Part shown: positions 36,351 through 55,024 of the stretch, piece after piece
Numbering within the stretch: the stretch's first letter is position 1
Layout: each line of letters starts with the position of its first letter
Assembly (NCBI GenBank): GCA_963662465.1
Contig: OY759599.1
Span: forward strand, 1,184,001-1,248,000
Source of the DNA: Desulfatiglandales bacterium
Lineage (GTDB): Bacteria > Desulfobacterota > DSM-4660 > Desulfatiglandales > Desulfatiglandaceae
Reading direction: 5' to 3'
DNA length: 64,000 nt
The notes under the pieces: generated by a model
Seen by the model: only the letters and a program-made list of their open reading frames with translations
What the model was told of the DNA's origin: nothing
The model's database searches: none
Made by a program: the position numbers and the translations under genes

Positions 36351-36938
36351 CTACCGTTTCTTAATGGCGCACTTAAGGCCGTTTTTGATCAGTGCCGGCC
36401 CCAGTGCCGCATAAATAAGGCCTTTGACCACCAGTTGGTAGGCATTGAGGGTGGGTGGCCGTTTAAAAATTGTATTCAATATGAACTGGGGGAAAAGATA
36501 GGTTTCCACAATGGCCAGCGCTCGGTTCAATTCCATGCCGTAGGAAACCTGACCATCCAGCATAATCCGGCTTTCGGCCAGGGCCTGGTGGGCGCTCATC
36601 TGGGCCGTCAGCACTAGCATGGCGGAATCCAGGTTTTTAAAGAGAAAGGTCATGTGCGGATTCATCTTTTTTTTCCCCAGGTAGTGAATTCGGTTGCCCC
36701 TTTTCTCCAGGGTGATATAGGGCCCTCTGGGGAGTACCCCCAGCGCACACCGTCTGCCGTCGTTCCAGTTTATGATCTCCCGTTTCAAATCGGGGGCCCG
36801 TTTGGAAACCTCTTCAAAAGCCACTCCGATGAGTGTCAGGGTCATGTCGATTAATTCATATTTGGATTTGGATTGGATAACCGGGTAAAAGGGGAGGGCG
36901 CGAAGCTGGGCGAGACCCTTTTCGATGATAAAATCCAT
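36351..36938 (-). CDS. Hypothetical protein, possibly SCP2-like lipid-binding fold
   Basis: FKNLDSA..VLTAQ....A.AESR..LDG pattern; near ADH/patatin genes. Confidence 0.5.
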   Translation of the reverse strand: MDFIIEKGLAQLRALPFYPVIQSKSKYELIDMTLTLIGVAFEEVSKRAPDLKREIINWNDGRRCALGVLPRGPYITLEKRGNRIHYLGKKKMNPHMTFLFKNLDSAMLVLTAQMSAHQALAESRIMLDGQVSYGMELNRALAIVETYLFPQFILNTIFKRPPTLNAYQLVVKGLIYAALGPALIKNGLKCAIKKR

Positions 36939-37113: not shown

Positions 37114-37770
37114 TCAGCTGATAATTTCTAAAAATTCGGCAATGACCTGAATGCTGCCCTCATCTTCGCAGGTCAACTCAATGGGTTGAAAATCGGGATT
37201 GTTCGGTTTGAGGATAATCTTGACATGACGCCAAGTGCCATCTTCCGAGGCGGCCTTTTGGCTTTCATAACGTTTCACTGTGTAACGTTCGCCTGTCTCC
37301 GGATCCAGGTCATCAAGCAGCCCCACAACCACCGTCCTGCCTTGACGTGTTCCTGTGACCGGGGCCGCAAACAGGCAGTATGATCCGTTCGGTATGGACG
37401 GCTCCATGGATTTACCGACCACCTGGGCCACGAACATTCCCGGGCGCAATCGTCGGTGCGTGTCGATTTCCACCCAATCCCATTCTTCCGTATCCAGGCG
37501 CTGCGGGTCGCTGAATGCCCCTGCGGCAAGCTTGAGAGGCACCAGCGGTATGCAGTTGACGTAGCGGTCTTTTTGGCGTGCTTGCACAATCCTGAGGACC
37601 GTTCGCTCCTTTGTTTCTTCTGTCTTATCTGCCTGTTCGAACCACGAGGTATCTTTGCGGATTGCGTCCCGCAAATGATCTTCACGCAGATACCCTGCGA
37701 GTTTGCGGAAGTGCCGTGTCATAGCGCCTTCATCATCCAGATCGCTCACAACAATCTCAATTACTTCGTA
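37114..37770 (-). CDS. S24 (LexA/UmuD-type) peptidase domain; probably the frameshifted C-terminus of the upstream helicase
   Basis: LAAG, VVGKSMEP.I.NG and YTVKR. The frame is open upstream as EYEVIEIVVSDLDD, overlapping the helicase end. Confidence 0.8.
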   Translation of the reverse strand, partial: YEVIEIVVSDLDDEGAMTRHFRKLAGYLREDHLRDAIRKDTSWFEQADKTEETKERTVLRIVQARQKDRYVNCIPLVPLKLAAGAFSDPQRLDTEEWDWVEIDTHRRLRPGMFVAQVVGKSMEPSIPNGSYCLFAAPVTGTRQGRTVVVGLLDDLDPETGERYTVKRYESQKAASEDGTWRHVKIILKPNNPDFQPIELTCEDEGSIQVIAEFLEIIS

Positions 37771-40700
37771 CTCGATTGTTGCGCAGCCAGGTGCGGATAC
37801 GCTGATCCTGCTCCGCTGTGTCGGGATTCCCGTGGATGTGGGTGCTTAACCCATCCAGGTAAATGCATACTCCTTCATCTTCGGCATGGTGGTCTGCACG
37901 ATAGATGATATCCGGCGTTGTGGTACCAATGGCCCTGTCCAGCCGAATCTGCTCACCTCGGACCCCTTCCTCAAATCCAGCGGATAGCAGCAGATGCCTG
38001 AGTTTTCGTTCTACTTCGTTGACCGGGTGGGTTCCTTCCGAAGGCTCCTCAGAAGGCCGTTTGGCGGCGATTTCGTGAGCCGGCTTAATCCGGTTACCCC
38101 AGGAACGCAGGTTCTCCCATGCCAATTCCCGGTTCAGATATTTGTGATAGTAACCGTTCCGGAATGTTTGGAGACAGTCCACACAGGAGGTGTCGCAGGC
38201 GGAAGGGCAGGTTTCAACAATTTCAACGGCATGGTTGACCACCTTGTCAAAACACTCGCAAATCTGGTCAATGAGGCCGGAACCGCCCGGCATGGGATCC
38301 CATAAGAGGCCGTCTACTTCATCTCGATCCACATGCCCGATGACCAGAATCTGAAGGTCTTCCATATGCATGTCCAGCACGCTTGTGGCAGCTATGCGCA
38401 ACGTCTCCAGAACACTGTAGGCGGTTTGCTGATCCGGGCAGGCAGGCAGGGACAGTACATCGGCGACTACATCGGCATAAAACCCGACCGGCGCCGGCGG
38501 CCGACCGCACCGTTCTTGGTGAGACTGGTCAAAATGGTTTCGCTGTTTGTCTGAAGAAAGCGGAGAAATACTCTGTCCACAAACCCTGCAGACCGGGTAG
38601 CCATAACGGCCAAACCGTTCAATGGCGGAATTGGCGCCCACATTGACCAGTCTCAACCTCACTCCTCGGCGGTGATGCAGGGCGTGAGGCCCCCAATTGT
38701 AAGCCTTGCCGCCGTTATGCTGATCGCGCTCGATACCGTAAACCGCCACGCCCATCTGAAACCGCAGCTCTTCTTCATCGGATATGTGGGATTGGTGGAC
38801 CAAATCCACGTCGCAAACGGCAATGGTCTGTAAAATCGTTGCACCCAGTGCCCCGGGAGTGGCTCCCGCGTTGGTTTCCTTGACGGCATGTCTTTCCGTG
38901 GAAATTTCAAAGACCGGCATTTCAGCACGTTCTTCATCCACATCACGGTGGAAGCGCCTGGCAACAAACCGATTGCCGTTGGCGTAGATGAGATTTCCGG
39001 GGACATATTCGCGCAGGGCCACACTGGGAGGCCGGGGCAGAGCGAACTCCATGGCTCCGGTTCGCCAGAAGGGTATTTCCGCGGTACCCAGAACCGACCC
39101 TCTTTCGAGGCCGTACCCCGGCAAAAACCCTTCGGCGGACAACACGCCGTAGGTGTTCACGTCATCATAGCCTTCCGCTTCCCGGCGTCTTCGCCGGATG
39201 GTGCCTTTCAGCCGTTTAACCAGGGTATCGCAGCGGCGAAAAAGCGTATCGTCCTCAGGTTCGAGATCTCCCTGCTTTTCCCGCAGCAGATTCAGCCGTT
39301 TAATCTGAGCAAGCGCCCACTGGAGTCGCCTTGAAAGGCGGCCGATGACAGCCTCAAGTTCGGATACCATTGTGTGGATATGGTTCAATAGAACTTCGGG
39401 CTTTGTCACCTCGGCATCCGCTTCCGGCCAGCCCTGGCTGAAGGCGGCTGTCACATATTTCATCAGGTCCTTCTCGCATCGACCCATCAGGATTTTGAGG
39501 GGAGACAGATCAAAAATCTGTTCTCGAACCAGTCCGTCTTCAAACAAATAGGATGAAATCCGATCCGGCAGGCAGGTTTTCAGCGTATCCCTTATGTTGT
39601 TACGCTGTTCGTCCGTCAGGGAACTATCACGTATGTACTGGTGCAATCGGGAAATGACGGTGGCGTGAACGTGTTTGGCCACCATCAGGTCATTTCTCAG
39701 GTTAAACGCCGGCGGGTCTACCCGGCCTGCCAGCAATTTAAAAGGATCGGCAAAATAGGCTCGGTCGTGGGATACCGATCGGCAGTAGGTCAGCCCCACC
39801 GCCATGCGATGGCGTCTGCCTGCCCGGCCCGCCCGTTGCCAGTAATTGGCTGGAAGCGGCGGGACGTTGCGCATGAGCACCGCGTCCAGTTGCCCGATGT
39901 CTACTCCCAGCTCCAGGGTCGGCGTACACACAAAGGCGTTAACCGCTTCAGAGTTTCCTTTGAATAGATTTTCCAGGCGCTCTCGTTCCTTGTGGGGGAC
40001 CATGGCCGTGTGTTCCTCCGGCCGCAGCATGGCGTAATTTTCATCAAGCAGTTGCAGGTTGTAGTTGTCTTTGTCTTCCTTTACAAATTGGAGTTCACCG
40101 TTGCATCGCCAGGAGAGACACAACTGCCCGGGTGTTCGGCGGGTGGAGGTTCTTCGGCAGCTTTTACAGCGCCATACCCCGTGGTTTTGCTGGAGTCGAA
40201 GCCGGTCCGCGTTGACTTGGTAGACCCCGCTAAGATTCGGAAGGGCGCCACCCCTTGACCCTTTGAGCTGGACCGGGGTCAAAAATGTTTCATCAACAAG
40301 AAAGTGAAAAAGTCCCTCAAGAAACGGTTCGATATTTTCCGGTGGAAGGCCCCATTTCCGGGCGATTTGGCGCATGGTGGTATCGCCCTGATCACTGATC
40401 CACTGGATAACAAGGGTTGATTTTTCCGGTGGTTCACGCCTGAGTTTGGTCCCTACCGGGTTGCCGATCTGGGGCAGATACCCTTGCTGCACTTCCAGAT
40501 CACCGTCCATCCAGTATTTGCTGAAGATCTCCCGTTCCGGATCGTAAAGCACATGCCGACGCCGAAGGTAGTCGAGAAGGCTTGCCACCCCTTCCCGCAG
40601 GTCTTCCGCCGGCATGCCTAGCGAATCGGCGTTTTTCTGAATCCATGGCAATGTTGCGGCAAGACCTTCATAGTCCACTTTCATACGGCCCCACGGTTCG

Positions 40701-43036
40701 AGACCGAAAGCCTGGCGCGAAGACAGGGTCACTTCCCGCAGCACCTGTATGCGTAAAAACTTTCGTCTTTCCTGTTCGTGACGACCGCCCCCACCTTCTT
40801 TTCGTACGACCAGCCACACTTCGGGTACGAGGGCGCGCGACAAGGATTCGTCCGCTTCAAGGGCGTCGTCGATGCGCCGTGACAAGTCCCCGACAGACAG
40901 GGGGCCATCCTTCAGGCCTTCCATCATCAGGGCCCGAAGTCGAAAGCGTCTTGCGTGGTCTTTCATCCAGCCGGCTTGAAAAGCGGCATCCTGGCGGTTG
41001 TCGCAGAAGACCAGAAGCCTTTGACGTTCTGAATTATGCACCATGTCCTGGGTCAGGACGTGGACGTCGGCCACGTTGGTTGCCCGGACGGGCCTCGCCG
41101 GTTCGCGATACCGGCCTCCAATGCGTCGCCCGTTAGCGCCGCAGGACAGACAGCTCGTCAGCACTCCCGGATTATCCCTTTTTTGACGCACGGCAAACAA
41201 TTCAACCGTCATGCCGGTTGCCCCGCAGTGCCGGCACCGTCCGGCTTCCCCAGGGTGGGCGGCCCCGCAGTACCGACAAAAGTGAAGGGGTTCGGTTCGG
41301 GCATGGTCTTCAAGGTTTTCATCGTCGCTGCCGCCGATGAGCCGATCCAGCAGGAGTACGCGATGCCCTCCCCGGGATTCTTCCAACGGTTCCCAATAGT
41401 GGCTGTCTCCAGCTGCTTCGCCGCCACCGGGTTTTTTCCGGGTGTATTCAAAATCCTTCAAGAACGAGACAAAATAGTGTTGGCCGCAGGTGGTGCAGGT
41501 GGTCACCGGAAAGTGGGCATGCTTTTCCTCTCCCTCGGCTGCTTCGATTTCGTCTTCGGCCGCCAGCCAGAGCCTGGGGACATTTCCGTTGACCGGAAAG
41601 TTCACCACCGCACCGCTGATGCCCCGAACAAATCCATGAACCACAGGCCTGAGCAGTGGGCGACCATCCAGGCGTGCGGCAGCCCCCAGGGACAGCCATG
41701 CGAGGATTTCGGCTTCGCTCACCGGGCGGCCCAGCTTTTCTTCCAGTTCGGAGGGAAGGCTGCGGAGTTCCCGGGGTGTGGCCAGGGATTCATTTAACTG
41801 AAAGGCCAGTTCGTTTTTAGACAGGTCCTGATGCAGGGCAACGGGCCAATCAAGCGCATCGTCCAGAGTTTTGCCTGCCAGATCCTGATAAACTTTACGA
41901 ACAGCCTCCCCGGTCTCGTCTTCAACGGCTGCCACGCATGCACTCAGTAATTGTGCCGGTTCAGAGCCCGGAGTGGGCGGGGTCGTACGTCCGCCGGCCC
42001 ACACTTCGGGTTCATAGGCTTCACCGACCGTTGTCACTTCCGATCCGGACACGCCGAAAAAACGGGTGGCAAAGTCGCGGGCGGCCTCCGGATTTTCCTG
42101 GTCGACAATGGTAGCCGATGTGGCCACACAGACCGAATCCTGCTCCTCCCGACCGCAAAATGCCCGCAGCCGCCGGATGAGGCAGGCGGTTTCAGACCCC
42201 TGAGCGCCGGTAAAGGTGTGCGCTTCGTCGAAAACGAGAAAGTCGAGGCGTGCGTCCGTGAACAGTTCGATGTCCCTCTGGCGGGTGAGCAGCAGCTCCA
42301 GCTGTTTGACATTGGTCAGCAGAATGCGCGGCTGTTTCCCCGCCGTACGCATAATCTCCCGAGAACAGACCTCCTCCCGCGGGTGAACCGTTTCACCGGT
42401 TCTTTTTTCGCTTCGTATCTTTGCCAACTCGGCTTCATAGTCAGCCCTCGAACTTCCTTCCGGCATTCGTCGCCCGGCCACGTTATTTTCCCGCTCCGGC
42501 GTCTTTCCCACGTACATGCCGAAGGGGATGCCTGTACCGGCGAGCAGAGATCTGAGCCGACCCAGCTGATCCTCTGCCAATGCGTTCATGGGATACACGA
42601 TGACGGCGCTGATGCCGGCAGACGCCCCCATGTCTCTCAGTTCCAGGCACTTGCTCACGATGGGATAGAGAAAACATTCGGTCTTGCCCGATCCGGTGCC
42701 GGTGGAAACCAGGGTTGTGCGCCCGGCATGGATGGCGCGTATGGCCTCTTCCTGGTGGCCGTAAATATGGGTGATGGCTTCGGGAATGCGCCGGCGCATG
42801 TGGGAATGGAAAATACCTTCCGAGATGAGATTCTCCACTGAAACACCCTGCCTAAAGGGACGGGACAAACTGATGTAAGGCCCTTTCAATAAGGGCGACT
42901 GTCGCGTCTGATCCAGGGAGAGCAATTGTCGCATCTGGGCATGAAGGGCTTTATCGGCAAAGGGGTAGGCCGTGAGTTGGTATCGCAGGAAATTGCTGAC
43001 GACTTTTTCGGTGAAAGCAATGGGGTTTAGTGCCAT
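37757..43036 (-). CDS. Large DEAH-box helicase with Zn-binding motifs, DUF1998 and a C-terminal Vsr/DUF559-like nuclease (DrmA+DrmB-like content)
   Basis: TGTGSGKT, YPMNAL..DQ, DEAH, TPTLELGVDIG, QRAGRAGR, multiple CxxC, D..PGGSG..C..AC..SC.DCL and PDI..IYLDG..H. ATG 43036 follows TAAGGA. Confidence 0.88.
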   Translation of the reverse strand: MALNPIAFTEKVVSNFLRYQLTAYPFADKALHAQMRQLLSLDQTRQSPLLKGPYISLSRPFRQGVSVENLISEGIFHSHMRRRIPEAITHIYGHQEEAIRAIHAGRTTLVSTGTGSGKTECFLYPIVSKCLELRDMGASAGISAVIVYPMNALAEDQLGRLRSLLAGTGIPFGMYVGKTPERENNVAGRRMPEGSSRADYEAELAKIRSEKRTGETVHPREEVCSREIMRTAGKQPRILLTNVKQLELLLTRQRDIELFTDARLDFLVFDEAHTFTGAQGSETACLIRRLRAFCGREEQDSVCVATSATIVDQENPEAARDFATRFFGVSGSEVTTVGEAYEPEVWAGGRTTPPTPGSEPAQLLSACVAAVEDETGEAVRKVYQDLAGKTLDDALDWPVALHQDLSKNELAFQLNESLATPRELRSLPSELEEKLGRPVSEAEILAWLSLGAAARLDGRPLLRPVVHGFVRGISGAVVNFPVNGNVPRLWLAAEDEIEAAEGEEKHAHFPVTTCTTCGQHYFVSFLKDFEYTRKKPGGGEAAGDSHYWEPLEESRGGHRVLLLDRLIGGSDDENLEDHARTEPLHFCRYCGAAHPGEAGRCRHCGATGMTVELFAVRQKRDNPGVLTSCLSCGANGRRIGGRYREPARPVRATNVADVHVLTQDMVHNSERQRLLVFCDNRQDAAFQAGWMKDHARRFRLRALMMEGLKDGPLSVGDLSRRIDDALEADESLSRALVPEVWLVVRKEGGGGRHEQERRKFLRIQVLREVTLSSRQAFGLEPWGRMKVDYEGLAATLPWIQKNADSLGMPAEDLREGVASLLDYLRRRHVLYDPEREIFSKYWMDGDLEVQQGYLPQIGNPVGTKLRREPPEKSTLVIQWISDQGDTTMRQIARKWGLPPENIEPFLEGLFHFLVDETFLTPVQLKGSRGGALPNLSGVYQVNADRLRLQQNHGVWRCKSCRRTSTRRTPGQLCLSWRCNGELQFVKEDKDNYNLQLLDENYAMLRPEEHTAMVPHKERERLENLFKGNSEAVNAFVCTPTLELGVDIGQLDAVLMRNVPPLPANYWQRAGRAGRRHRMAVGLTYCRSVSHDRAYFADPFKLLAGRVDPPAFNLRNDLMVAKHVHATVISRLHQYIRDSSLTDEQRNNIRDTLKTCLPDRISSYLFEDGLVREQIFDLSPLKILMGRCEKDLMKYVTAAFSQGWPEADAEVTKPEVLLNHIHTMVSELEAVIGRLSRRLQWALAQIKRLNLLREKQGDLEPEDDTLFRRCDTLVKRLKGTIRRRRREAEGYDDVNTYGVLSAEGFLPGYGLERGSVLGTAEIPFWRTGAMEFALPRPPSVALREYVPGNLIYANGNRFVARRFHRDVDEERAEMPVFEISTERHAVKETNAGATPGALGATILQTIAVCDVDLVHQSHISDEEELRFQMGVAVYGIERDQHNGGKAYNWGPHALHHRRGVRLRLVNVGANSAIERFGRYGYPVCRVCGQSISPLSSDKQRNHFDQSHQERCGRPPAPVGFYADVVADVLSLPACPDQQTAYSVLETLRIAATSVLDMHMEDLQILVIGHVDRDEVDGLLWDPMPGGSGLIDQICECFDKVVNHAVEIVETCPSACDTSCVDCLQTFRNGYYHKYLNRELAWENLRSWGNRIKPAHEIAAKRPSEEPSEGTHPVNEVERKLRHLLLSAGFEEGVRGEQIRLDRAIGTTTPDIIYRADHHAEDEGVCIYLDGLSTHIHGNPDTAEQDQRIRTWLRNNRVRSN

Positions 43037-43061
43037 GGCATAGTCCTTAATATCTATAGGG

Positions 43062-45728
43062 TCAGTGGGTCCAGATTTTACGGGATAGTGCAAGGACCCT
43101 TGGTCGAGCGCCTGCCTTCAATCTGAACCCCAGTCCGGTCCGAAAAATTTCCGGCATATAATACGCTTCGTTTTCCCCATATGCGATTCCATTATTTTCA
43201 AGGGCTTTCAATTCGTCAATACTCAAACCGACCTCTTCCCTCAAAAATGGTATTTGTCGATGTTCGTCGTTTAATTCACTAAGTTTGTTGAAAATATCTT
43301 TTAATTCATTGTTTTCAATGCCGATTTCATTTATCTTTTCCTTGCTGCAAACTTGCAGAGCGCCTCTTATGGCGGTCGGCGCCAAAATTCGATCTTTCCA
43401 GAAAACGTCCTTTTCCGAATCAACAGCGGCCTGGTGCAGGAATCGAACAAGATCTCTCGCCTGAGTCTGTCCCTTTAAATCAGAAAGGGCTGCGATTACC
43501 CAGTTTGCGGATCTTGCTTCTCTTGAACCTTCACTGCCGAGTTTTCTCCCCCATAGTGCTGCGAGGGCGTGCGTCAAGGCTTCTTTGTTTAATTTTTGCA
43601 GCGCTTCTTTTTCCAGAGTCGCCAGCGCTCCGGACTGAACGCCGACCCAGGCTGCCAGTCGAAGTGCCTCTTCAGGACTCCACCTTAGCGCATGAGGCTC
43701 ATATCTGGCCATCAGTTGAGGCGCATTTTGTTTAACGGCCGTCAGGACCATATCCTGGCGAATGAAAACCAAAAGTCCAATGTTGCGGTCCGGCTGTTGC
43801 TCAAGCCATTCCGGCACTTCTTGAATTAAAGAACGAATGGCCGTCTGTTGGCGGCGATTTGAGGATAGATCCTGGAATTGATCTTCGAGGCCGTCAATGA
43901 TCGGCAAAATACTTTTTTTCTGTCTGGTCAGGTAAGCTGGAAATCTTTTTCCGGCACCCTTTTCAAAAACATCAAAGCCTGCGCTCCATGCCAGGATATC
44001 AATCCATAGTTCCCGCCAATCCCCTTCGTGAAGGTCTTCCTTTAATCTCTCTCTTATATGGTCATATATGGCTGACAGCTCAGGCAGATTCTCGAAACCC
44101 AGCGATTTTCCTGCATCGGTTCTTGTTTTAAGAACAAGCGTGTTTGTGTCGGATGCGATATTTTTTGATTTCATGACCGGGCAGATGAGTGCCGTTATGG
44201 GGCTTCCGGAAATGCCGACATCGTTAATAAATTGTGCCCAATTGTTTCTGAACACCACCTGGAGAAATGTGTAAGTTTTTCCGGATCCTTTTGCGCCGAC
44301 AATCACCGAAACGGGTATCTTTGCCATAAAATCCGAGGCAAGATTTTTGAGTGGCGGTATTGATAAAAACTCTTTCAGTGCACTTGTTTCGGCATAGATA
44401 AGTTTTTTTGAAAATGCCGCAAGATTTTTGCGCTTTGAGATGCTGTTTTCTATGACTGCGTCAATTTCTCCCGTTTTGGAGGGGAGGAGGGGAAGCCATT
44501 CTAACAGCGGGTTCAATTCATCGGTCAGCCCCGCCTGCAAAATTCGCTTCATGACGTCTGCCCAACTATTGGGAAGAACCTGGAGGGAACTTGAAAATGA
44601 CGTAACAATCCTTGGGATTTCGAGATCCTCTTTCCCATTTTTCACTTCCCAAATGAGTTGTGCCGCTTCAAGTACTCTTTCTTCGTGTCGGGCCACCAGT
44701 CCATTTTTAAGCAGATCTTCCGGCACTTGTGAGAAAATCACGGAAGGAACAGGTTCATCTTCTCTCTTTGAGGGCGCACGACTCCCCAACAGCTCAAGTT
44801 CCTGACAGGTTCCTTCGATGGATTGGCTGCTCAGAGTGGTAACAATCACTCTGAACACACGCGGGTCCAGCAAAAACCCGGTTGAAAGCTCCGAGAGTCC
44901 GGCGCGCAGATCAACCACTACCGCATCCACTCCGAGCTTGAATCCAAGCGCTGCAACGGCCTCCGACAAAATAAATGGATTTTCCGCCCCTTGAATCAAG
45001 TGTTCGGGCCGGATTTCCAGGGAAGTGAACTGGGCGCCGGTTCGAAAAGCAGGGAGGATATACATATTGTCAAGCAACATTTCCTTGAGACGATCCGCAA
45101 CAATATCGATGCCGGCTTTTCCATCGGAGGATGGATCACCATGAAGCAGCGCTAAAAAATCGGCAAAAGAAACGGAGGGGTTGGGAAATCTTTTTTTAAT
45201 CAGCCAGGTAACCCCCGGCGCTTCCAGATCCGCATCAATAAACAGAACTCGTGCATCATCCCGCTGGTTGGTGATGGCCCTGGCCATGGCTAACGCATTG
45301 ATAGTGCGCCCCACACCACCCTTAAATGAGTGAAAGGCAATCACAGGAGGTAGATGCGCAGCCATTCCCGGTGGAGAAGCCTCTGCTGGACTGCCGGACA
45401 GAAAGGATGGTCTTTGAAGGCTCGGTTTGAACTTTTGCCGCGGCGGTGCTTCCGTTGTCTCTTCGAAAACGATATCCAGAAGCCGTTTGCTGTCCGGGTT
45501 GCTTTCCAGGATAATTGCCGGTCTTTCATTATCAAACCTTGGTTCAAAGAGTTTTGCGAGCCATTCAACCAGTTCTTCTTTTTTTCCCGACCGAATTCCG
45601 AGGGTTAGACTGTCCCAGTAAGCGCGAACCCAGACCAACCCATCGGGCCAACGGCTTTTTTCCATGGCTGTTTGAATCACTTCTTCGGCATCTATCCAGG
45701 TGAACAAACGCGTATCCGATGGAAGCAT
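43062..45728 (-). CDS. ParA/MinD-like (KGGVGR variant) ATPase fused to a second P-loop NTPase
   Basis: FHSFKGGVGRT, IDADLEAPG and VDLRAG; second Walker A VGAKGSGKT and Walker B IIDGLED. Confidence 0.85.
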   Translation of the reverse strand: MLPSDTRLFTWIDAEEVIQTAMEKSRWPDGLVWVRAYWDSLTLGIRSGKKEELVEWLAKLFEPRFDNERPAIILESNPDSKRLLDIVFEETTEAPPRQKFKPSLQRPSFLSGSPAEASPPGMAAHLPPVIAFHSFKGGVGRTINALAMARAITNQRDDARVLFIDADLEAPGVTWLIKKRFPNPSVSFADFLALLHGDPSSDGKAGIDIVADRLKEMLLDNMYILPAFRTGAQFTSLEIRPEHLIQGAENPFILSEAVAALGFKLGVDAVVVDLRAGLSELSTGFLLDPRVFRVIVTTLSSQSIEGTCQELELLGSRAPSKREDEPVPSVIFSQVPEDLLKNGLVARHEERVLEAAQLIWEVKNGKEDLEIPRIVTSFSSSLQVLPNSWADVMKRILQAGLTDELNPLLEWLPLLPSKTGEIDAVIENSISKRKNLAAFSKKLIYAETSALKEFLSIPPLKNLASDFMAKIPVSVIVGAKGSGKTYTFLQVVFRNNWAQFINDVGISGSPITALICPVMKSKNIASDTNTLVLKTRTDAGKSLGFENLPELSAIYDHIRERLKEDLHEGDWRELWIDILAWSAGFDVFEKGAGKRFPAYLTRQKKSILPIIDGLEDQFQDLSSNRRQQTAIRSLIQEVPEWLEQQPDRNIGLLVFIRQDMVLTAVKQNAPQLMARYEPHALRWSPEEALRLAAWVGVQSGALATLEKEALQKLNKEALTHALAALWGRKLGSEGSREARSANWVIAALSDLKGQTQARDLVRFLHQAAVDSEKDVFWKDRILAPTAIRGALQVCSKEKINEIGIENNELKDIFNKLSELNDEHRQIPFLREEVGLSIDELKALENNGIAYGENEAYYMPEIFRTGLGFRLKAGARPRVLALSRKIWTH

Positions 45729-46244: not shown

Positions 46245-49200
46245 TCAATCAAAAAGTCCCATCTGGCTCATTTCACCATTATTGGCATAGGCAGCTTCTT
46301 TCTCAGCCATTCGGTTCGGCGATTCTATATTGTGGCCGGCTGCAATTTTTTGATAGGGCGCCTCCCCGACCTGATCGCGGATGATCTTGTGCCAGGGGTG
46401 GTCGGTTAGGTGCGGCAGTGAAGCCAGCAGTTTCTCAAGGGCGGCATTGAACCCGGTTTCCCCGAGGTACTCTTTGGCGGCGGCAAGGGCTTGTTTTCGG
46501 TTCTCTTTGGGAACTCTCTTCAGCGCATCGGCGATGATCTGGACCATATCGGTATGGCTCCAGGCAAACCCCCGGTTATTTAAAATCCTTCGGGATTCAT
46601 CCAGTCGGTCGCGCCACGTCTGGGGGTCCATAAATACGATGGCAGTGGAGAAAACTTCACATAGATGCGCCTTTTCCTCCAGATCAAAGGCCAGGTAAAG
46701 AGCATCCTCCCAGCCCCCGGACGGCGTATCCCGAAGAACTTCTCCCAGCAGTTTCAAGTAGCCGCTCCGCCCCAACAGGTTCCGAGCATGGAGGTGGCAT
46801 TCCCGCCAGGATTCGTCAGGGCTTTGGGCGAGCTGCCAGTCGTAGAAGCGGGGTCCGAGGCGGCCGGCCACAGGCTGGTGTTCCTTGGCGCGATCGTCGT
46901 GGCCGAGGCCGTAGTCGGCCAGCCGCAGGGTCTCGGGGAGTATCCACCCTTCGCCGTCGTTCTGCTTGAGGAAGGCTTCAATGCCCTTGTTCCGGTCGCC
47001 GCCGCATTCTTGGATTTTTTGTTCCAGGTCGTGAAAGGCGACGAGGGTGAGGACGGTGTGGCGAAGTTCCGGGTCTTTGTCTTTGTCGACGCGCCAGAAG
47101 CCTTTTGGATTAATTATAGCTGTGAATTCTCTATCGCTAAATTTTGTTAATGGGGCATCACATTCCTTCAAAATGTTGTGTAGATCATTGGAGGAAAGAC
47201 GATAAAGAGCAACTAACACGGCATCAATAGTAACGTTTGCACGCAGTCGCTCAAAGTCAGTGACATACCATGTCTTCGGGCTGTAAGAGAGATCTTGCTG
47301 GTTACTAAATGAATAATTGGCTAAGGTAATTGCAACTGGCGAAAATAGCCATGAAGCCATATTCATATTCATTACCCATTTGCTTAGGACAGATATGATC
47401 TCCAAAGACAAAATAGGGATTGGCATCGCTGTGAGGCTGGCGAGATCAATGTTTGTCCCTCCACACCGATCTCGTAGAATCGAGTCAAATACAAAGGAAT
47501 TTAAGACAGCAGTTAAAATCAAATCTTTTTGCGATTCATTTGTCGTCAGTATTGGAGACTTGTCCCCAGAGGGGTGCCCCATGTCAACAGTAGAAATCAT
47601 AGTTCTGGCATCGGTATTTCTAGCAACGCGTCTATGGACAGACCTAAGCTTGATCCGGGGAGCGTCTCTATAATTCATCAAATACTGTGGGGAAATAATT
47701 TTATTTGCCCATTCGATTGGCTTCCATTTTGCGAGAAGACCTGTCCCTGAGATCCATCCCTTTTGGCTGAAATCGAATCGATGAATCATAACGCCTTGCA
47801 TGAATGCTACTGCCATATCCTCAATCTCATTTTCCCGGATCCATGCATCCACTTCCCGTGAAAGGATAATACCTTCAGGAATATAAACACGGGGAATGGG
47901 CAGGCGATCATAAGGCGGTTGGGCACAAAGGGTTTCGCCTTCTATCAGAGGTTCAACAGCCAAATCCTCCCAAAGCTCGTTAATCGGCCGCCATTCCCCC
48001 TTGAGCCACCGGCTGTATTCATCCGGCCGGTAGCCCTGGGCCTCCCATTTCGGCCTCGGCGGAAAGAGTTTGGAATCACTGGTCATGTTGAAATCGCCTT
48101 GCGCGTATTTGATGCCCCAACTGTCGGGACCATTATCCCCCAAGAGTACGGAATTGGAGTAGATTTTTTCAAGGATTTCGAGATCGCGGCCGGACTGGAT
48201 TTCCAGAATGGCCATGGTCCAGGGACTGAACTGTGTCACCTGTTCTCGGCGGTATGGCGTGGCGAAGGCTTCTCCCCGTTCCCAGTCTTCCAGTTTCCGC
48301 CGCATGAAGGCGGTTTGAATGGCATCGGTCTGGCCACCCTTTTCAATGATGACGGGGTTGAATTTGAAACGGCTGTCAATCTGAAAAACCTTGTCTCGGT
48401 TCTCGAACCCGAAAAGCCATTCCCAGCGGCAGTGATCAAGAAAAAGCTCTCTCAGCGCCCTTGTGCCATGATCCGAGTATAGCCCAGACGGCACGATAAA
48501 CCCTAAACGTCCCTTATTGCACAAAATATGATGTGCATGTTCAAGGAACAGCTTGTATGTATATGCCTTTCCTTCTCCCCTATGGCGGAATGGGTGGTCT
48601 GGGGAAGCGTAGGCGACACTTTTTTCTCTTGCAGCTCTCCAGTTATCGTGAAGAATAATGTTCCTATTTCCTCTAACAATTGAGAAACGGTCAGTGCTTT
48701 TTGTTGTGCTTTCAGGATCACCAAAAGGTGAGCCAGCAAATTTCATCCAGTTTGAATCGCAAACAAAACCGCCTGTATAATTAAGCCATTTACGTTCGGT
48801 TTCTTCTTCTTTGAAATAGGTTGTCTGAAAGCGCAATGCTTCCTGTTTACCGTAGGATCGATACAATGGATCAATATTCGAAAAGAACTCCATTGAGTTG
48901 GGTTGAAGGGTTTCCCAGGGCGGATTTCCCAACACCGCATCAAAACCGGACCCCTTGGCTCGAAACACATCCGGAAATTCCAGGGCCCAGTGAAAAAAGC
49001 GTTTGTTCGTCGTAACCCGGTCCGCCACGGCCCAGGTCTCATGGGAAGGCTCGGCAAAGGTGGTGGGCAACGGGGCAAGGCCGATTTGGTCCGGTGGCCA
49101 GAACCAGCAGGCGCACCAGAGGTCCATAGCCGCTTTCAGAGAGCAATAGGCATCGGAGCCCACAAATTCTTCCCGGTACATCCGGGCACGCCGGGCGCTG

Positions 49201-51770
49201 TCCTTCACGGGTAGGTCATGCAGGCGGGAGAGAGTGGCCAGGGCCGCGTCATGCCTGGCGGCTGCTTTTTTCTGAAATTCCTCCGCAAACCAGGCCTTGT
49301 TTTTGAGGAAAGTCTCAAGGTCCGGCGTCAAAATGTCTTTGACAAACGCCTTGATTGCTTTTGTTCTCGTCTCCTTTTGATAATGTACCCCATTGGTATG
49401 GCCCTTATCTCCGCCCTCCCGGTTCTTCCACGCCATCACCGGATAGTGTGAAAACTGGTCAAACCACGTTCCCACCAGGCTGTTGCCGCATTTGATCTTG
49501 TGATCCAAAAAGGAAAAGGGGAGCTCACGATCCATGGTCTCGATCCACAACGCCAGTCGGCACAACTCCACGGCCAGGGGATCCAAGTCCACGCCATAAA
49601 TGCACCGTTCCACCACAAACCGCTTGAGCAGTGATTTGGTTCGAGTCTCGAAATTTTCACTGTCCGGAGACCCGGGCAATCGGGTGTCCGTCAGCTTTTC
49701 TTCCGCTTGGGGGTTTTTTAGCCCCAATAATTTCTCCAGGGGGCTTTTCCAGTCGTCACCGACCCGGTTGTGGGTAAACAACGACCGAAAAAGGGCTTCG
49801 GTCAGAAATCTCAGGGCGGCCACGGGGAATGATCCCGAACCGCAGGCCGGATCACAGACCTTGAGGGCAAGGATCTCTTCGGGTTTCCTGGGTGCCCATT
49901 CGCTGGTTGGGGCGTTCGTGTTCGGTTTCCCATCTTTGTCCAGGGGCGGCACGTAGGCCAGGGGGCGAAGGGTGCGCATGACCGTGGGAACGGCCAGGCC
50001 GGGTCGGGTATAAAAGGTCCCCGCACCTTTTCGAGTGCCGCCCCAGCGCACCAGATACCATTCACCGGGAAGTACCACACGGGACACCAGTTGACGAGCC
50101 TTGCGAGAAATATTTTCTTCGTGGACCAGCTGTTTTTCGGGCGTCATTCCCCCTTGGGGTCGGGACACCAGTTTGCCCATGTCCACTGCTTTTCGGGCCC
50201 AGGTTTCAGCTCGGGTGCGGATGGTGTGACGTGTGTCTTCCGCCGTCTCCACATTAACATCCACACCATCATCGGCATCCTTGTCTTTCTCGGAAGCATC
50301 CCCTTCATCCGCTGCCGGCTCAATGGAATCCGCTTCGGTTTCATCGTCCCCGCTACTGGTATCTTTCATTTTCTCCAGCAAATCGGCCAGGGCCTTGTTG
50401 TCCATGGCCTCCAGGCGGGACAGGGGCAAGGCAGGCTGATTGCCGATGGAGAGAAACACGACAGGATCACCGGACGGAGCGGTTTTGAGTTCGAAATCCA
50501 GCAACCCCTCGTACAGGATGCCGATGTATTCGCTGGACAGGTCCGAAAAATCAACGGGCGCCGGAACCCAGATACTGCCCCGGCCCTGGCGTACTTTGAC
50601 ACGGGTGCGGGTGATACGTTCAATCAGGCGCAGCACCTCACGGTCGCTCATGATCTCCCGGTGAAAACAGGCGTTTTCCAACACGGCAATCGCTTTTGCC
50701 ATTGGGTCGGCCGAATCCGTGTTTCCAGGCATAAAAAGTTCGCCGCCATATTGGGGAACCGGCAATGCGGGATGATGGGAACCCTGAAAGACCAATCGGA
50801 ACAGCCCCAGTATTCGAGGCCAGGCATTCCAGGATCGGGAAAGACGTCCGCTGCCGCGAGCGGCTGTTTTTTCCAGCGATTCCCGCAGGCCGGTGATGCC
50901 GTAGGCGGTATGGTAGAGGGTATTGTCCCGGGGCAACAGTTCACGGGATTCCGCAAAGAGTACCACCACGATCCGCATGACCATCCGCACGGCGGCGCGG
51001 TAGATGTCCTCGGGGGTCCCCTGGGGGCATTCTTCTTTTAGCACCTCGCCATGGGCCTGAAGGAGAATTTCCACGGCCTCGCGGACCCTCTCTCCCAACT
51101 CGGTGGACAGGTCGGCCTGGCCTTTGCGGCTGTCTAAAACCGCCTGAAGCAGCGGCGCCGCTTCTTTTTCAGCAGTTGGAATCCATGCCCCCGGCGATAG
51201 CAATGTGCGAAGGGCTGTTACCTGGGGAGACAATTCCCCTTCCTCGAACCACAGGTCCACGTCCCATTCGCACCAGGCGTCGAAATCAAGCCCGGCAAAT
51301 ACCAGCCGCCACTGGCGACCGTTGGTGATCACAGCCAGACGTTCCGAACCTGCTCTAAGCCACTGAAGCACCTGGCTGGCGGCCTTTCGGCCCCGTCCCA
51401 CCCCCACGCGTTTTTCCGTATCCAGAAAAACGGGCAGCAATCCGCCATTGGTTCCTTGCCAGAGCTGTCTGGGCTTGATGGCTTCGCCGGTGACGGCGCG
51501 GCGTGTCCAGTGTGTCCCCATCCGGTTTCCGCGACGCCAAGTACCCAAATTGCTGGAAAAACCGCAGATCGTCTCCAAAACAAATGCGACAAATTCCGGA
51601 ACATCCGCGTTCTGATCCATCAGCGCATCGACCCGTCGGCGCAGCTGGTCTCTGAAGTAAACAGGCAGCGGTTCCGGAATCATTTCGGCGATCCGGTCTA
51701 ATCGCTGTGTATCGAGGAGCAGTCCGCCGTGGCGCAACCGTTCCCAACCGAACTCTCTTACCGAGCTCAT
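46245..51770 (-). CDS. Type IIG/Eco57I-like N6-adenine DNA methyltransferase (DrmMI-like)
   Basis: ITNGRQWRL, GILYEGLL, RK..GTFYT, DPACGSGSF, IYGVDLDP.AVEL and GFDAVLGNPPW. Confidence 0.9.
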   Translation of the reverse strand: MSSVREFGWERLRHGGLLLDTQRLDRIAEMIPEPLPVYFRDQLRRRVDALMDQNADVPEFVAFVLETICGFSSNLGTWRRGNRMGTHWTRRAVTGEAIKPRQLWQGTNGGLLPVFLDTEKRVGVGRGRKAASQVLQWLRAGSERLAVITNGRQWRLVFAGLDFDAWCEWDVDLWFEEGELSPQVTALRTLLSPGAWIPTAEKEAAPLLQAVLDSRKGQADLSTELGERVREAVEILLQAHGEVLKEECPQGTPEDIYRAAVRMVMRIVVVLFAESRELLPRDNTLYHTAYGITGLRESLEKTAARGSGRLSRSWNAWPRILGLFRLVFQGSHHPALPVPQYGGELFMPGNTDSADPMAKAIAVLENACFHREIMSDREVLRLIERITRTRVKVRQGRGSIWVPAPVDFSDLSSEYIGILYEGLLDFELKTAPSGDPVVFLSIGNQPALPLSRLEAMDNKALADLLEKMKDTSSGDDETEADSIEPAADEGDASEKDKDADDGVDVNVETAEDTRHTIRTRAETWARKAVDMGKLVSRPQGGMTPEKQLVHEENISRKARQLVSRVVLPGEWYLVRWGGTRKGAGTFYTRPGLAVPTVMRTLRPLAYVPPLDKDGKPNTNAPTSEWAPRKPEEILALKVCDPACGSGSFPVAALRFLTEALFRSLFTHNRVGDDWKSPLEKLLGLKNPQAEEKLTDTRLPGSPDSENFETRTKSLLKRFVVERCIYGVDLDPLAVELCRLALWIETMDRELPFSFLDHKIKCGNSLVGTWFDQFSHYPVMAWKNREGGDKGHTNGVHYQKETRTKAIKAFVKDILTPDLETFLKNKAWFAEEFQKKAAARHDAALATLSRLHDLPVKDSARRARMYREEFVGSDAYCSLKAAMDLWCACWFWPPDQIGLAPLPTTFAEPSHETWAVADRVTTNKRFFHWALEFPDVFRAKGSGFDAVLGNPPWETLQPNSMEFFSNIDPLYRSYGKQEALRFQTTYFKEEETERKWLNYTGGFVCDSNWMKFAGSPFGDPESTTKSTDRFSIVRGNRNIILHDNWRAAREKSVAYASPDHPFRHRGEGKAYTYKLFLEHAHHILCNKGRLGFIVPSGLYSDHGTRALRELFLDHCRWEWLFGFENRDKVFQIDSRFKFNPVIIEKGGQTDAIQTAFMRRKLEDWERGEAFATPYRREQVTQFSPWTMAILEIQSGRDLEILEKIYSNSVLLGDNGPDSWGIKYAQGDFNMTSDSKLFPPRPKWEAQGYRPDEYSRWLKGEWRPINELWEDLAVEPLIEGETLCAQPPYDRLPIPRVYIPEGIILSREVDAWIRENEIEDMAVAFMQGVMIHRFDFSQKGWISGTGLLAKWKPIEWANKIISPQYLMNYRDAPRIKLRSVHRRVARNTDARTMISTVDMGHPSGDKSPILTTNESQKDLILTAVLNSFVFDSILRDRCGGTNIDLASLTAMPIPILSLEIISVLSKWVMNMNMASWLFSPVAITLANYSFSNQQDLSYSPKTWYVTDFERLRANVTIDAVLVALYRLSSNDLHNILKECDAPLTKFSDREFTAIINPKGFWRVDKDKDPELRHTVLTLVAFHDLEQKIQECGGDRNKGIEAFLKQNDGEGWILPETLRLADYGLGHDDRAKEHQPVAGRLGPRFYDWQLAQSPDESWRECHLHARNLLGRSGYLKLLGEVLRDTPSGGWEDALYLAFDLEEKAHLCEVFSTAIVFMDPQTWRDRLDESRRILNNRGFAWSHTDMVQIIADALKRVPKENRKQALAAAKEYLGETGFNAALEKLLASLPHLTDHPWHKIIRDQVGEAPYQKIAAGHNIESPNRMAEKEAAYANNGEMSQMGLFD

Positions 51771-54700
51771 GATTCACCTCCCGGCAAGCGGACTTCAATA
51801 CAGACCGGAAACACTTGGGCGGCGCCGGCCAGCAAATGGCGTTTGGGCAGAAGGTGTTTTACGATTCGCTCCCTTTCACGATCCAGCTGGTCGCGTACCT
51901 CCACATAATGGCGTGTGCGCCGGGCAATCTCATCCTGTCTTTCCTGGATTGACCGGTCAATGGCTGCCAGCCGCTGTTCCTCGTTAAACAGGAACCCCTG
52001 CTGTCTTTCCATTTTCAATTGGGCCACTTCACGTTCAAGCCTGGCCAGGGTGTTTTCCGCAATGAGACTGGAGACTTCACCTCGGCGGCTGCGGTAGCGT
52101 TCTTCCTCTTTCTTCAGGGCGTCAGCGCCGGATTTTTCAAGTTGAAACTTGAGTTGTCGGGTAAGGTCTTTCCCATGGGCAGAGAGAAACGCTTTCAGAT
52201 CCGGTTCCACATCTTCTAAGATCTCCCGTGCGCGGGTGATGAGGGCGGGTGCTTCGATTTTCCCGACCGGGCGAAGGTTCATGGTGGGGCGATGGGGCAA
52301 GGGCTGGCTCAGATTCCCCTGATGAATGGGGAACACCAGGGTTCGAACCCAATGGTGAAAGGTTTCGCGCAATGCATTGACGGCCAGTTCCTCAACGCTC
52401 AGCAGCACCAGAGCATCGGCGCCGGTCGGCACACTCCCCAATGCTGCAGTCCAGCGCGACACGCTCTCTCCGGTTCCGGGAAACCGGCAACGGGTGAGCG
52501 CACCGAGGGCACGTTGAAGCATGGGGTGGGACAGGTGTATGAAGCTTACATCCGGCAGCGGGTAAAACACCAGGCGATCGCCCATTTGACGAAGAAAGGG
52601 ATCCGGACTGAAAGCCAGGCGGGCGACCGGTCCCCGGGTTGAATTGCCCGTTTTGGTCCGAAGAGACTCATCAATGACCTCGCTCCAGCCCGGCAGAGAC
52701 GGGTTGAGTATCTTACAGGTGTTGTCCGGCGTTTCGCAAGCCATTTGGGGGCGCTCGGCGCGAATGGCCATGGCCGCCTCCAGGGTTTCCCGCAGGGCGT
52801 TCGGATCCAGGTCCATTTCAGCAGCCAGAGCCTTGAGGCGGTTGCCGGCATCACGACCCTCTTCGCCTGTTTCCGTGGTGGCATCGGCATCCATGGAAGC
52901 CCTTCCCCGGGCTGCATCCACCCGTCGATCCAGGTCGGCCTGAACCGCCGTAAGGCTTTCACCATCCACCAGACGACGGTGGGCCGCTTCGTCAAAGATC
53001 TCATTGGCTGAGCCTAGGTCCTCCCGAATTTCGTGGGCCTTGCCGATGACGTGGGACAAAAACCTGAGGTCCTGGTCCTGATCGCTCACAAAGTGGTAAA
53101 CCGTCACATCGCGGGCCTGGCCGTGGCGATCCAGACGGCCGTTTCGCTGTTCCAGCCGGGAGGGGTTCCAGGGACAATCGAAATGAAGAAGGTAACGGGC
53201 TGAGCGTTGCAGATTCAGCCCTTCGGCGGCGGCATCCGTGGCCAGCAGGATACGAACGGAGTGTTTAGGATCGTTAAAAGACTGTTTAACCAGATCCCGT
53301 TCGCTCTCGTCCATGCCACCGAAAAGGGTGAGGATACGGTCCGGTTCGTAGCGCTCGCGCAGGCGCCGAACAAGATAGTCCAAAGTGGTTTTATACTCGG
53401 TAAAGACCACGAGTCGTTCGTCGTCCCGCCACCCGCCGTCGGTGTGCAGCAGCCTTTGGATGAGACCATTGAAGACAGTAAAGCGCGTGTCGGCAGTTGG
53501 TGTTTGTTCTGCCACATCAGCCGCTTCAAGGTTGAAGCCCAGACCGGATACTGCCAGGTCCAGGGCGGCGATTTCCTCTTTCATTTCAGGAGCGACGGCC
53601 TTCAGCCACGCGCCAACGACCCCGGAAGCAATGGATTCCCGAGATTGGGCTTCCCGATCATCGCCGGTGTCGCGCTGAACGCTTTTCCGGGATGCCTCCA
53701 CTTCGGCATCCTCAGCGGGCCGTTCTTCCCGGAGCCCTTCCTTGCATCTCCGCCACGATTCGGCAAAGGCTGTAGGACAGCTCAACAGGCGTTTTCCGAG
53801 GATCTCAACGGCAAAGCTGCCGGCCCTGCGCCGTTTATGGAGGGTACCACTGATCAGTTTTCGTATTTTCGTGCGGAAGGCGTCAAAGGCGACGGAGAGC
53901 GCCGTTTCCATAGGCGTTAGGGGCAATGTGAGGGCCTGGGGCAGGTTCCGGGTGCAGAATTTGGGTGGATCGGTTCGCGCATTGATATCCCGTTTCAGTC
54001 GACGGAGTACCACCTGTTGGACGCGGCTTTTTTCAGCGGGTTTGAGTTCGTTGGTTTGACTGAAGCGAACCGGATCGAGGATTTCCAGAAGCCCGGTAAA
54101 ACATCGGGTGTGGCCGTTGTGGGGGGTGGCGCTGAGAAATAATCGGTGTTCGAACTGTGGGGCCAGAAGGCGTAGCATGCGACAGAGGTCGCTGTCGTCA
54201 CCGAATGCCGAGGGCATCAGGTTGTGGCATTCGTCCACAATGAGGAGGTCCCACGGCAGGTGAGGGGAACCCTCGGGTGTTCGACAGGCGGCCAGAAATT
54301 GCTCCAGCACGTCATCCTGGCGCAGGTAGTGGTAGGAGGTAATGATGCGGCTGAAGGAACGCCACGGGTTGGCGTCCATGCCGAGGCGCTTTCTGAGATT
54401 GTGGGTTTCAGCCCGGTCCACCAGATTGAAGGTCAGGGCGAATTTCTCCCACATTTCATCCCGCCACTGAAGGCGGAGCGATGCCGGTGTGAGGATCAGG
54501 ACCCGTTGGATGCGCCGACGCAGCAGAAGCTCACTTAAGATCAGGCCCGCCTCCACAGTCTTTCCGAGCCCCACGTCATCGGCGATGAGCAGGTTGACCC
54601 GCGGCATGAGCAGTGCCTTCAACAGCGGCACCAGTTGGAAGTCCTCGATCTGGACCGCTCCGTGAAAGGGGCTTGATATGGGCTTTCTGTCCAGAGGCCC

Positions 54701-55024
54701 GTCGCCGTCCGGGTCCAGGTAGGGCATGGCGGCCGTCCATCGTGAGGCCCGAAGCAAGGCATCGAAGTCGTCTCTCGGCATGGGATCCGTGCTGCTCGAA
54801 AGGGGCAGGGCTGTCGGTTCAAGCAGGTTTTTGTGCGGTTCCAGCTCCCAGAGAAGTTGCTCTTCAATGGGATACTGGTCGTCTTTGTATTCCAGATGAA
54901 CCAGGTGCAGACGTCCGGTATCGCCGTCAAACGGCTCGACGGCCGCCACGATGCCGCGCCTGTTGCGGACGGTGGCAAACATGCCGGTGCGAGGGATTGA
55001 AGTTGCCATAACGGTATGGGTCAT
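51767..55024 (-). CDS. drmD: SNF2-family helicase (DrmD-like)
   Basis: LLIADDVGLGKT, IVDECH, LSATPHNG, VFTEY..T, ATDAAAEGLNLQ and WNPSRLEQRNGRLDR. ATGA overlap with the MTase. Confidence 0.85.
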   Translation of the reverse strand: MTHTVMATSIPRTGMFATVRNRRGIVAAVEPFDGDTGRLHLVHLEYKDDQYPIEEQLLWELEPHKNLLEPTALPLSSSTDPMPRDDFDALLRASRWTAAMPYLDPDGDGPLDRKPISSPFHGAVQIEDFQLVPLLKALLMPRVNLLIADDVGLGKTVEAGLILSELLLRRRIQRVLILTPASLRLQWRDEMWEKFALTFNLVDRAETHNLRKRLGMDANPWRSFSRIITSYHYLRQDDVLEQFLAACRTPEGSPHLPWDLLIVDECHNLMPSAFGDDSDLCRMLRLLAPQFEHRLFLSATPHNGHTRCFTGLLEILDPVRFSQTNELKPAEKSRVQQVVLRRLKRDINARTDPPKFCTRNLPQALTLPLTPMETALSVAFDAFRTKIRKLISGTLHKRRRAGSFAVEILGKRLLSCPTAFAESWRRCKEGLREERPAEDAEVEASRKSVQRDTGDDREAQSRESIASGVVGAWLKAVAPEMKEEIAALDLAVSGLGFNLEAADVAEQTPTADTRFTVFNGLIQRLLHTDGGWRDDERLVVFTEYKTTLDYLVRRLRERYEPDRILTLFGGMDESERDLVKQSFNDPKHSVRILLATDAAAEGLNLQRSARYLLHFDCPWNPSRLEQRNGRLDRHGQARDVTVYHFVSDQDQDLRFLSHVIGKAHEIREDLGSANEIFDEAAHRRLVDGESLTAVQADLDRRVDAARGRASMDADATTETGEEGRDAGNRLKALAAEMDLDPNALRETLEAAMAIRAERPQMACETPDNTCKILNPSLPGWSEVIDESLRTKTGNSTRGPVARLAFSPDPFLRQMGDRLVFYPLPDVSFIHLSHPMLQRALGALTRCRFPGTGESVSRWTAALGSVPTGADALVLLSVEELAVNALRETFHHWVRTLVFPIHQGNLSQPLPHRPTMNLRPVGKIEAPALITRAREILEDVEPDLKAFLSAHGKDLTRQLKFQLEKSGADALKKEEERYRSRRGEVSSLIAENTLARLEREVAQLKMERQQGFLFNEEQRLAAIDRSIQERQDEIARRTRHYVEVRDQLDRERERIVKHLLPKRHLLAGAAQVFPVCIEVRLPGGES

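Follow-up and report, generated by a model that had tools for sequence, protein, structure and literature searches.

Bell et al. (2025, bioRxiv, PMC12458937) define ARMADA, a system named only in that year, by three components: a BrxHII-like helicase, a methylase of the PglX-like kind, and a YprA-like helicase that carries a fused C-terminal Vsr-type nuclease. Their paper calls the C-terminal domain of the YprA-like helicase a predicted active Vsr-type nuclease, and has the helicase last in some Type I and in all Type II systems (PMC12458937). Here we describe an operon that has all three genes, with the helicase last, in a 64,000-nucleotide stretch of a Desulfatiglandales bacterium genome (contig OY759599.1; this stretch is ‘the window’, and all coordinates are positions within it). 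The window operon differs from described ARMADA in that an 888 amino acid (aa) ATPase is inserted between the methylase and the helicase, and in that the helicase gene is frameshifted and normally ends in a tail with an S24 (LexA/UmuD-type) domain.

What the window adds is an ARMADA copy in which this tail, together with the last strand of the nuclease domain, is split off by a contig-verified one-base insertion. Our reading is that this is the YprA-like helicase-nuclease gene of an ARMADA-type anti-phage operon, that a real insertion has severed its normal LexA-like S24 tail, and that the effector is probably inactive here; taken together with the role proposed below for the tail in intact copies, we give this reading a probability of roughly 0.5. 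Neither the main text of the ARMADA paper nor four of its supplementary files contain the words S24, LexA, UmuD or peptidase (PMC12458937), and protease and self-cleav- do not occur in the main text. An S24 tail would add an undescribed domain to the system.

A single-base insertion splits the helicase gene

The split gene comprises the following features.

37757..43036, minus strand: truncated YprA/DruE-like helicase open reading frame (ORF) that encodes DEAD, Helicase_C and MZB/DUF1998 domains and the greater part of a nuclease domain at the C-terminal end (Pfam, PADLOC)
37774..37774, minus strand: inserted C (G on the plus strand), which throws the reading out of frame after Asn-Asn and before Glu-Tyr (alignment with relatives, X1 contigs)
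37114..37773, minus strand: tail frame of 219 codons plus stop, in which the last part of the nuclease domain is followed by a helical linker, the region around the cleavage site and the S24 core (translation, Pfam)

The helicase ORF has 1,759 codons counted from a probable ATG at 43036. The longest open frame (37757..43093) reaches a TTG at 43093, and alignments with homologues start at its residues 16–20. At the break the minus strand reads ...CTG CGC AAC AAT C GAG TAC GAA GTA ATT GAG ATT, with 37774 as the odd base. The first frame ends ...RIRTWLRNNRVRSN*, its last five codons being out of frame before a TGA, while the frame after the break begins EYEVIEIVVSDLDDEGAM..., passes through LKLAAGAF, GKSMEP and TVKRY, and stays open for 219 codons up to the stop at 37114. 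A sequence-only reading of this DNA had proposed a one-base frameshift near 37775 on the minus strand and a restored protein of close to 2000 aa. Both proposals held up: the extra C could be placed at 37774, the closest relative differs by exactly that C, and reading through the break from ATG 43036 gives 1,973 aa, compared with 1,968–1,999 aa in intact homologues.

When the C-terminal 429 residues encoded by the helicase ORF were used as a query, 120 homologues were listed at 71–90% identity, which are uninterrupted over the position of the break (RIRTWLRNNGYEVIEIA). Fused proteins of 1,960–2,015 aa make up 92 of these 120, nearly all with DEAD, Helicase_C, MZB and S24 (PF00717) domains on record, so full-length helicase-S24 fusions of the kind that the sequence-only reading had suggested looking for do exist. 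Rather than stopping near RNN and encoding S24 separately, the homologues run on as GYEVIEI into the fused S24 domain. The fused form of ~1,973 aa is thus the norm in relatives.

The same junction was examined at the DNA level. Relatives of the tail are encoded at 230 sites in the genome collection; among the 80 of these 230 that were retained, 35 also have the helicase, and in 35/35 of these helicase-bearing loci the junction lies within one open frame. The closest relative, a Desulfobacteraceae metagenome-assembled genome (MAG; L004), reads CGT AAC AAT GAA TAC, against which the window has exactly one added C. A one-base gap relative to the window is present in the DNA alignments of L004 and five other relatives.

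Evidence on the allele itself comes from contigs independently rebuilt from public sequencing runs, not from raw reads. Contigs from two runs of one sample (X8 and X9; depth 28 and 49) match the window without gaps and contain the extra base, though this sample may be the source of the assembly itself. A contig from a second sample (X10; depth 3) spans 37676–37807 and is identical to the window, extra base included. A marine metagenome from 2012 (X1; depth 14.2) has three contigs that are nearly identical to the window but are without letter 37774. The sequence-only reading had asked for assembly error to be separated from a real allele. Because read-derived contigs of the same organism have C 37774, and because the closest relative differs by this single C, the frameshift is a genuine allele.

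The separated tail is well preserved. Its frame departs from the family at one of 60 columns conserved at ≥95%, and the median of 106 intact homologues is also one; pseudogene decay of the tail was thus not seen. This points to a recent mutation or to continuing selection on the tail. Over the helicase, identity to L004 is 94%, whereas the tail is only 70.6% identical (37114–37773 versus L004:10001–10663), with the linker down to 36%. Because the window tail is nearer to those of other homologues (82% to P0003 and 75% to L001), the low identity to L004 suggests mosaicism, with tails exchanged between otherwise close genes, and not decay.

Irregular copies were also seen among the relatives. 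L025:5651–10687 is a remnant locus: after an SNF2 gene, ~230 codons from the start of the methylase run directly into the last ~140 codons of the helicase plus the tail, which looks like a large internal deletion. In L007, L011, L013, L017, L028, L043 and L047 the open frame with the tail falls far short of the gene's length, or the helicase is matched by tblastn in two to six pieces; the broken helicase copies in these MAGs may be assembly errors or true pseudogenes.

The tail is a LexA-like S24 domain

Within the tail frame we identified a Peptidase_S24 domain and candidate catalytic residues.

37147..37530, minus strand: Peptidase_S24 (LexA/UmuD-like) domain (Pfam PF00717)
37519..37524, minus strand: predicted scissile bond Ala|Gly in LKLAA|GAF (alignment with LexA)
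37408..37410, minus strand: predicted nucleophile Ser in GKSMEP (aligned with LexA S119)
37273..37275, minus strand: predicted general-base Lys in TVKRY (aligned with LexA K156)

The PF00717 match of the tail frame has an E-value of 7.2e-8 and 32.6 bits (cut-off 23.3). Comparing a 38-sequence alignment of the tail with Escherichia coli LexA by hhalign gave a probability of 93.6% (E 2e-7), in a register that sets GKSM on GMSM (S119) and TVKR on TVKR (K156), that is, S203 and K248 on S119 and K156. At the cut site PLVPLKLAAG falls on LexA PLVGRVAAG (A84|G85); here the hhalign register is ambiguous by one residue, and AAG was matched by eye. The S24 domain with Ala-Gly, Ser and Lys that had been read from the sequence is thereby borne out.

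Structure prediction pointed the same way. An AlphaFold2 model of the tail of an intact, 90%-identical homologue has predicted local distance difference test (pLDDT) scores of 89–95 over residues 181–300, with one block at 84. Foldseek searches with this model returned 34 matches at E ≤ 0.001, and all those listed are LexA, lambda cI or UmuD' chains. The top matches have E-values of 8e-7 to 1.6e-3, a probability of 1.00 and target TM-scores of up to 0.74, and some of the matched chains are bound to RecA filaments.

We gauged conservation in 150 cluster representatives that are ≤50% identical to one another. The Ser is present in 144/144 representatives covering its column and the Lys in 142/144, so the dyad is conserved. 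Around the predicted cut, P1 is Ala in 128/131, P1' is Gly in 125/131 and P2 is Ala in 127/131; among representatives covering all five columns, P2–P1 is Ala-Ala in 118/125, and Ala|Gly, Ser and Lys are complete in 114/125.

The tail thus shares with LexA, lambda cI and UmuD (MEROPS S24, PF00717) the fold, a Ser/Lys dyad in the LexA register and an Ala-Ala|Gly in a PLV..AAG region. Unlike them, it has no DNA-binding or polymerase-accessory partner, and instead ends a ~1,970-aa helicase-nuclease and many restriction enzymes. It also differs from LexA in having two extra hairpins, DPETGxRY and SEKxxxxDGxWRH.

The insertion breaks a probable Vsr/DUF559-like nuclease domain

The break falls inside one further domain.

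37700..38026, minus strand: probable Vsr/DUF559-like PD-(D/E)xK nuclease domain, broken just before its last conserved strand, YEVIEI (conservation, model, weak profile matches)

The modelled topology is helix, three strands, helix, strand (with low confidence at residues 19–62), and the frameshift lies between the long helix and the last strand. The Glu of the YEVIEI strand is invariant in 120/120 listed homologues. Because the break removes this strand with its invariant Glu, the truncated product is very likely to be without a working nuclease.

Several comparisons bear on the family of this domain. In a language-model comparison, the clusters nearest to the intact domain were those of DUF559 and MTES_1575 (0.90–0.91). 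Using hhalign, the expected motifs aligned with those of E. coli YcjD (E 0.009, probability only 4.5%) and of Vsr (E 0.039, low probability). Sub-threshold Pfam matches to DUF559 and MTES_1575 were found in 1/11 full-length homologues (P0243; 19.0 and 28.8 bits). PF04480 and PF18741 had no match in the intact tail at E ≤ 1, and none in 10/11 full-length homologues at E ≤ 0.5. A Vsr/DUF559 assignment is plausible from these comparisons. The earlier proposal that removing one base completes a Vsr/DUF559-like motif stands as regards the YEVIEI strand, which is restored, while its family assignment leans on the weak matches and on the ARMADA paper.

The operon resembles ARMADA more than Druantia or DISARM

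Upstream of the helicase gene the operon contains three further genes.

51767..55024, minus strand: DrmD/BrxHII-like SNF2 helicase, 1,085 aa (NCBIfam, PADLOC)
46245..51770, minus strand: PglX/DrmMI-like (type IIG-like) N6-adenine DNA methyltransferase, 1,841 aa (PADLOC/NCBIfam; upstream of the helicase in relatives too)
43062..45728, minus strand: KGGVGR-motif AAA / Sll1717-type P-loop ATPase, 888 aa, in a variable cargo slot between methylase and helicase (domain scans)

DEAD, Helicase_C and MZB/DUF1998 domains occur together in the helicase gene, as in a YprA-like helicase, and its operon partners are the BrxHII/DrmD-like SNF2 helicase and the PglX-like methylase; the same neighbours occur in relatives. 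The SNF2 helicase matches the NCBIfam DISARM_DrmD equivalog at 679.9 bits (cut-off 610), and the PADLOC models DrmD at E 1.6e-200 and BrxHII at E 1.8e-75. The sequence-only reading had called the protein a DUF1998 helicase. DUF1998/MZB is indeed present, but given DEAD, Helicase_C and the operon partners it is more apt to class the gene as an ARMADA system's YprA-like helicase than to leave it under the generic DUF1998 label. The fusion of a GajB-like helicase to RelE that marks Type II ARMADA is missing downstream, where the genes are a 195-aa ORF without a family and then an iron-containing alcohol dehydrogenase (Fe-ADH). The methylase and SNF2 genes of the window remain open. Because of the one-base break in the effector gene, methylase activity is probably all that the operon retains.

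The best PADLOC matches of the helicase are DruE models (E 1e-100 to 1e-102; DruE1 at E 1.4e-102), and DruE of Druantia is described as a helicase-nuclease effector too (PMC13192584). In Druantia III, however, PMC12458937 gives DruE PLD nuclease domains where the YprA-like helicase of ARMADA has a Vsr-like domain, and mentions no S24 tail on it. PADLOC found no match to DruH, DruA–D or DruM/F/G in the neighbours of the window helicase, and Druantia membership failed for want of partner genes beside the DruE-like helicase. With class 1 DISARM the window shares a DrmD equivalog and a DrmMI-like methylase, but a single gene encodes its helicase and DUF1998 parts, which DISARM divides between DrmA and DrmB, and this gene carries the nuclease as well. 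The ORFs scanned from 27.9 to 60.3 kb of the window include no PLD-type DrmC gene. Class 1 DISARM membership failed on the fused helicase/DUF1998 and the missing DrmC.

In relatives the methylase and helicase genes are adjacent or have varying cargo between them. The 888-aa ATPase has no homologue in the 80 related loci. In L001, L004, L007, L008, L012, L016 and L024 the slot contains AbiEi/AbiEii, HTH-M78 (helix-turn-helix; ImmA/IrrE-like), a nucleotidyltransferase plus a ParE-like gene, or a GmrSD-like gene.

The S24 tail is a portable module of restriction and defence enzymes

An exhaustive search with a 163-residue query from the tail identified 1,832 cluster representatives at E ≤ 0.001, 151 of them at E ≤ 1e-30. 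We scanned 77 of the best 150 representatives, picked by eye at about ≥250 aa, with Pfam. A restriction or defence domain precedes the tail in 44 of the 77, a helix-turn-helix (HTH) in four, and no other recognisable family was found in 29. Partners among the 44 are type ISP/IIG methylase-nucleases (12), MZB helicases (7), Schlafen-group-3/DUF2075 helicases (7), HsdR (4), HsdS (2), other helicases (2), AlbA_2 (2), PLD (2) and HNH (2), with one each of McrBC, LlaJI, RE_endonuc and a methyltransferase. Complete HsdR-S24 and type ISP-S24 genes were found in named genomes. The same tail module is therefore present on many other restriction and defence enzymes.

Full-text literature searches found no description of a restriction or defence enzyme that bears a fused S24/LexA-like domain. 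S24, LexA and UmuD are absent from eLife PMC7159879.

The tail may serve to remove the enzyme during DNA repair

How DNA-targeting defences avoid killing their own cell during host DNA damage and repair is understood for few enzymes. S24 domains self-cleave at Ala-Gly on activated RecA filaments. In intact copies of the helicase, the tail would cut itself at the Ala|Gly bond, most likely stimulated by filaments of RecA on single-stranded DNA (ssDNA), as LexA, lambda cI and UmuD are. After the cut the large enzyme would end in ..PLK(A/L)AA, resembling an ssrA or LexA-type ClpXP degron, and would be eliminated during repair of the cell's own DNA – a built-in restriction alleviation. That RecA*-stimulated cleavage creates an ssrA-like Ala-Ala end and so leads to destruction of the enzyme during repair is our best guess, drawn by analogy. 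The genome encodes both RecA and ClpX.

In LexA-like proteins a ClpXP C-degron lies right beside the cut site, according to a passage in PMC5742171 (citing Neher 2003). In ssrA-like degrons the terminal Ala-Ala is critical, and neutral-to-positive, moderately hydrophobic upstream residues help, according to a passage in PMC10862746. For restriction alleviation, PMC4231737 has HsdR removed by ClpXP through a degron that is still unknown. The proposed logic is that of the ClpXP-dependent alleviation of EcoKI, in which a translocating restriction enzyme is proteolysed to spare the host chromosome (PMC4231737). It differs in that EcoKI undergoes no self-cleavage and its degron is not identified in that account, whereas the S24 tail would itself create the degron.

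We favour removal of the enzyme over its activation because a degron works whatever the fold of the partner, which fits the promiscuity of the tail better than partner-specific steric inhibition does. More tentatively, and with some doubt, the portable LexA-type tail might be a general stand-down switch: RecA filaments would make type I, ISP/IIG, ARMADA, PLD, HNH, McrBC-like and Schlafen-type enzymes shed their tails, and the resulting Ala-Ala ends would deliver them to ClpXP in an enzyme-autonomous restriction alleviation. If true, a LexA module wired onto enzymes would be a simple, testable answer to the problem of self-killing, and would link the SOS signal to immunity without a transcription step.

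A number of observations weigh against this proposal. Eight of the 120 listed close homologues (P0041, P0042, P0071, P0083, P0086, P0113 and two more) are without the tail at 1,780–1,830 aa; in the six of these ~1,800-aa variants that were inspected the C-terminus lies just past the linker (..WF..) with no S24 module. The tail is therefore dispensable. The full set of Ala|Gly, Ser and Lys is missing in 11/125 representatives. Sequence searches of the PDB gave no match at E ≤ 0.01 with the alignment profile and no LexA-like match at E ≤ 10 with the single sequence, and the tail thus belongs to a divergent S24 clade. The host raises a further difficulty: the tail is the only PF00717 match in the 8.16-Mb genome (one contig), and the LexA DNA-binding domain (PF01726) has no match in the whole of it. 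The organism may have no classical LexA, and with neither this domain nor a second S24 the classical SOS co-protease role of RecA is not established here. The tail is also found on McrBC-like and HsdS proteins, where protecting unmodified self DNA is a less obvious need. Finally, the direction of the proposed switch, off rather than on, rests on argument.

The opposite direction would have the tail hold the helicase-nuclease inactive until RecA filaments on phage replication intermediates induce self-cleavage and free the active enzyme. The position of the tail directly after the nuclease domain and the conserved cleavage apparatus would suit such a switch, as would the account in PMC13192584, in which Druantia DruE acts on ssDNA-containing replication intermediates and is proposed to compete with RecA for them. 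We nonetheless consider it unlikely, given that the partners differ in architecture (HsdR C-terminus, HsdS, type ISP specificity domain, PLD, HNH, Schlafen-type): steric inhibition would have to re-evolve each time, whereas an exposed degron is independent of the partner. Restriction enzymes would, moreover, have to act on incoming DNA before RecA filaments form, and tail-less natural variants occur in the same clade. Less probable again is a tail that serves for dimerisation or for docking on RecA filaments and undergoes no cleavage in its native context. Its fold matches the domains at the C terminus of LexA, cI and UmuD', which are dimerisation domains, and RecA-filament-bound structures are among the matches, but retention of Ala|Gly and Ser/Lys in 114/125 diverse representatives would be unexpected if cleavage were irrelevant.

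Two alternatives to a recent inactivating insertion concern the break itself. A functional split, in which the strain produces a helicase with a truncated nuclease and, separately, an S24 protein through a restart at ATG 37722 or GTG 37749 or through +1 recoding, would account for the undecayed tail frame; GAAGG lies 4 nucleotides upstream of ATG 37722, and some database proteins start at the equivalent Met, though these may be gene-call fragments. A recent mutation explains the undecayed tail equally well, however, the junction is in frame in all 35 helicase-bearing relatives, and the break costs the nuclease its invariant IEI strand. No homopolymer, slippery run or Shine-Dalgarno-plus-stop context was seen at the site; a programmed frameshift was ruled out on the latter two, and we regard a functional split as quite improbable. 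A sequencing or assembly error in an intact gene is more improbable still, at the level of a slim chance: the X8 and X9 contigs possibly derive from the very reads behind the assembly and would then not be independent, but the site is not a homopolymer and the base recurs in rebuilt contigs at depths of 28 and 49 and, in the second sample, 3, on which evidence such an error was rejected.

Genes surrounding the operon

A 195-aa ORF (36351–36938, minus strand) lies directly downstream of the tail and has no Pfam, PADLOC or NCBIfam match. Some 3 kb downstream of the operon, between the Fe-ADH gene and an alanine racemase gene, is a patatin-like phospholipase (33099–34406, minus strand) with weak PADLOC matches to phospholipase effectors. 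Transposase genes of the DDE_Tnp_1/DUF772 and Transposase_29 types lie at the upstream end of the operon (55813–57294, minus strand; 58057–60324, plus strand), and beyond them G+C falls to 0.36–0.44.

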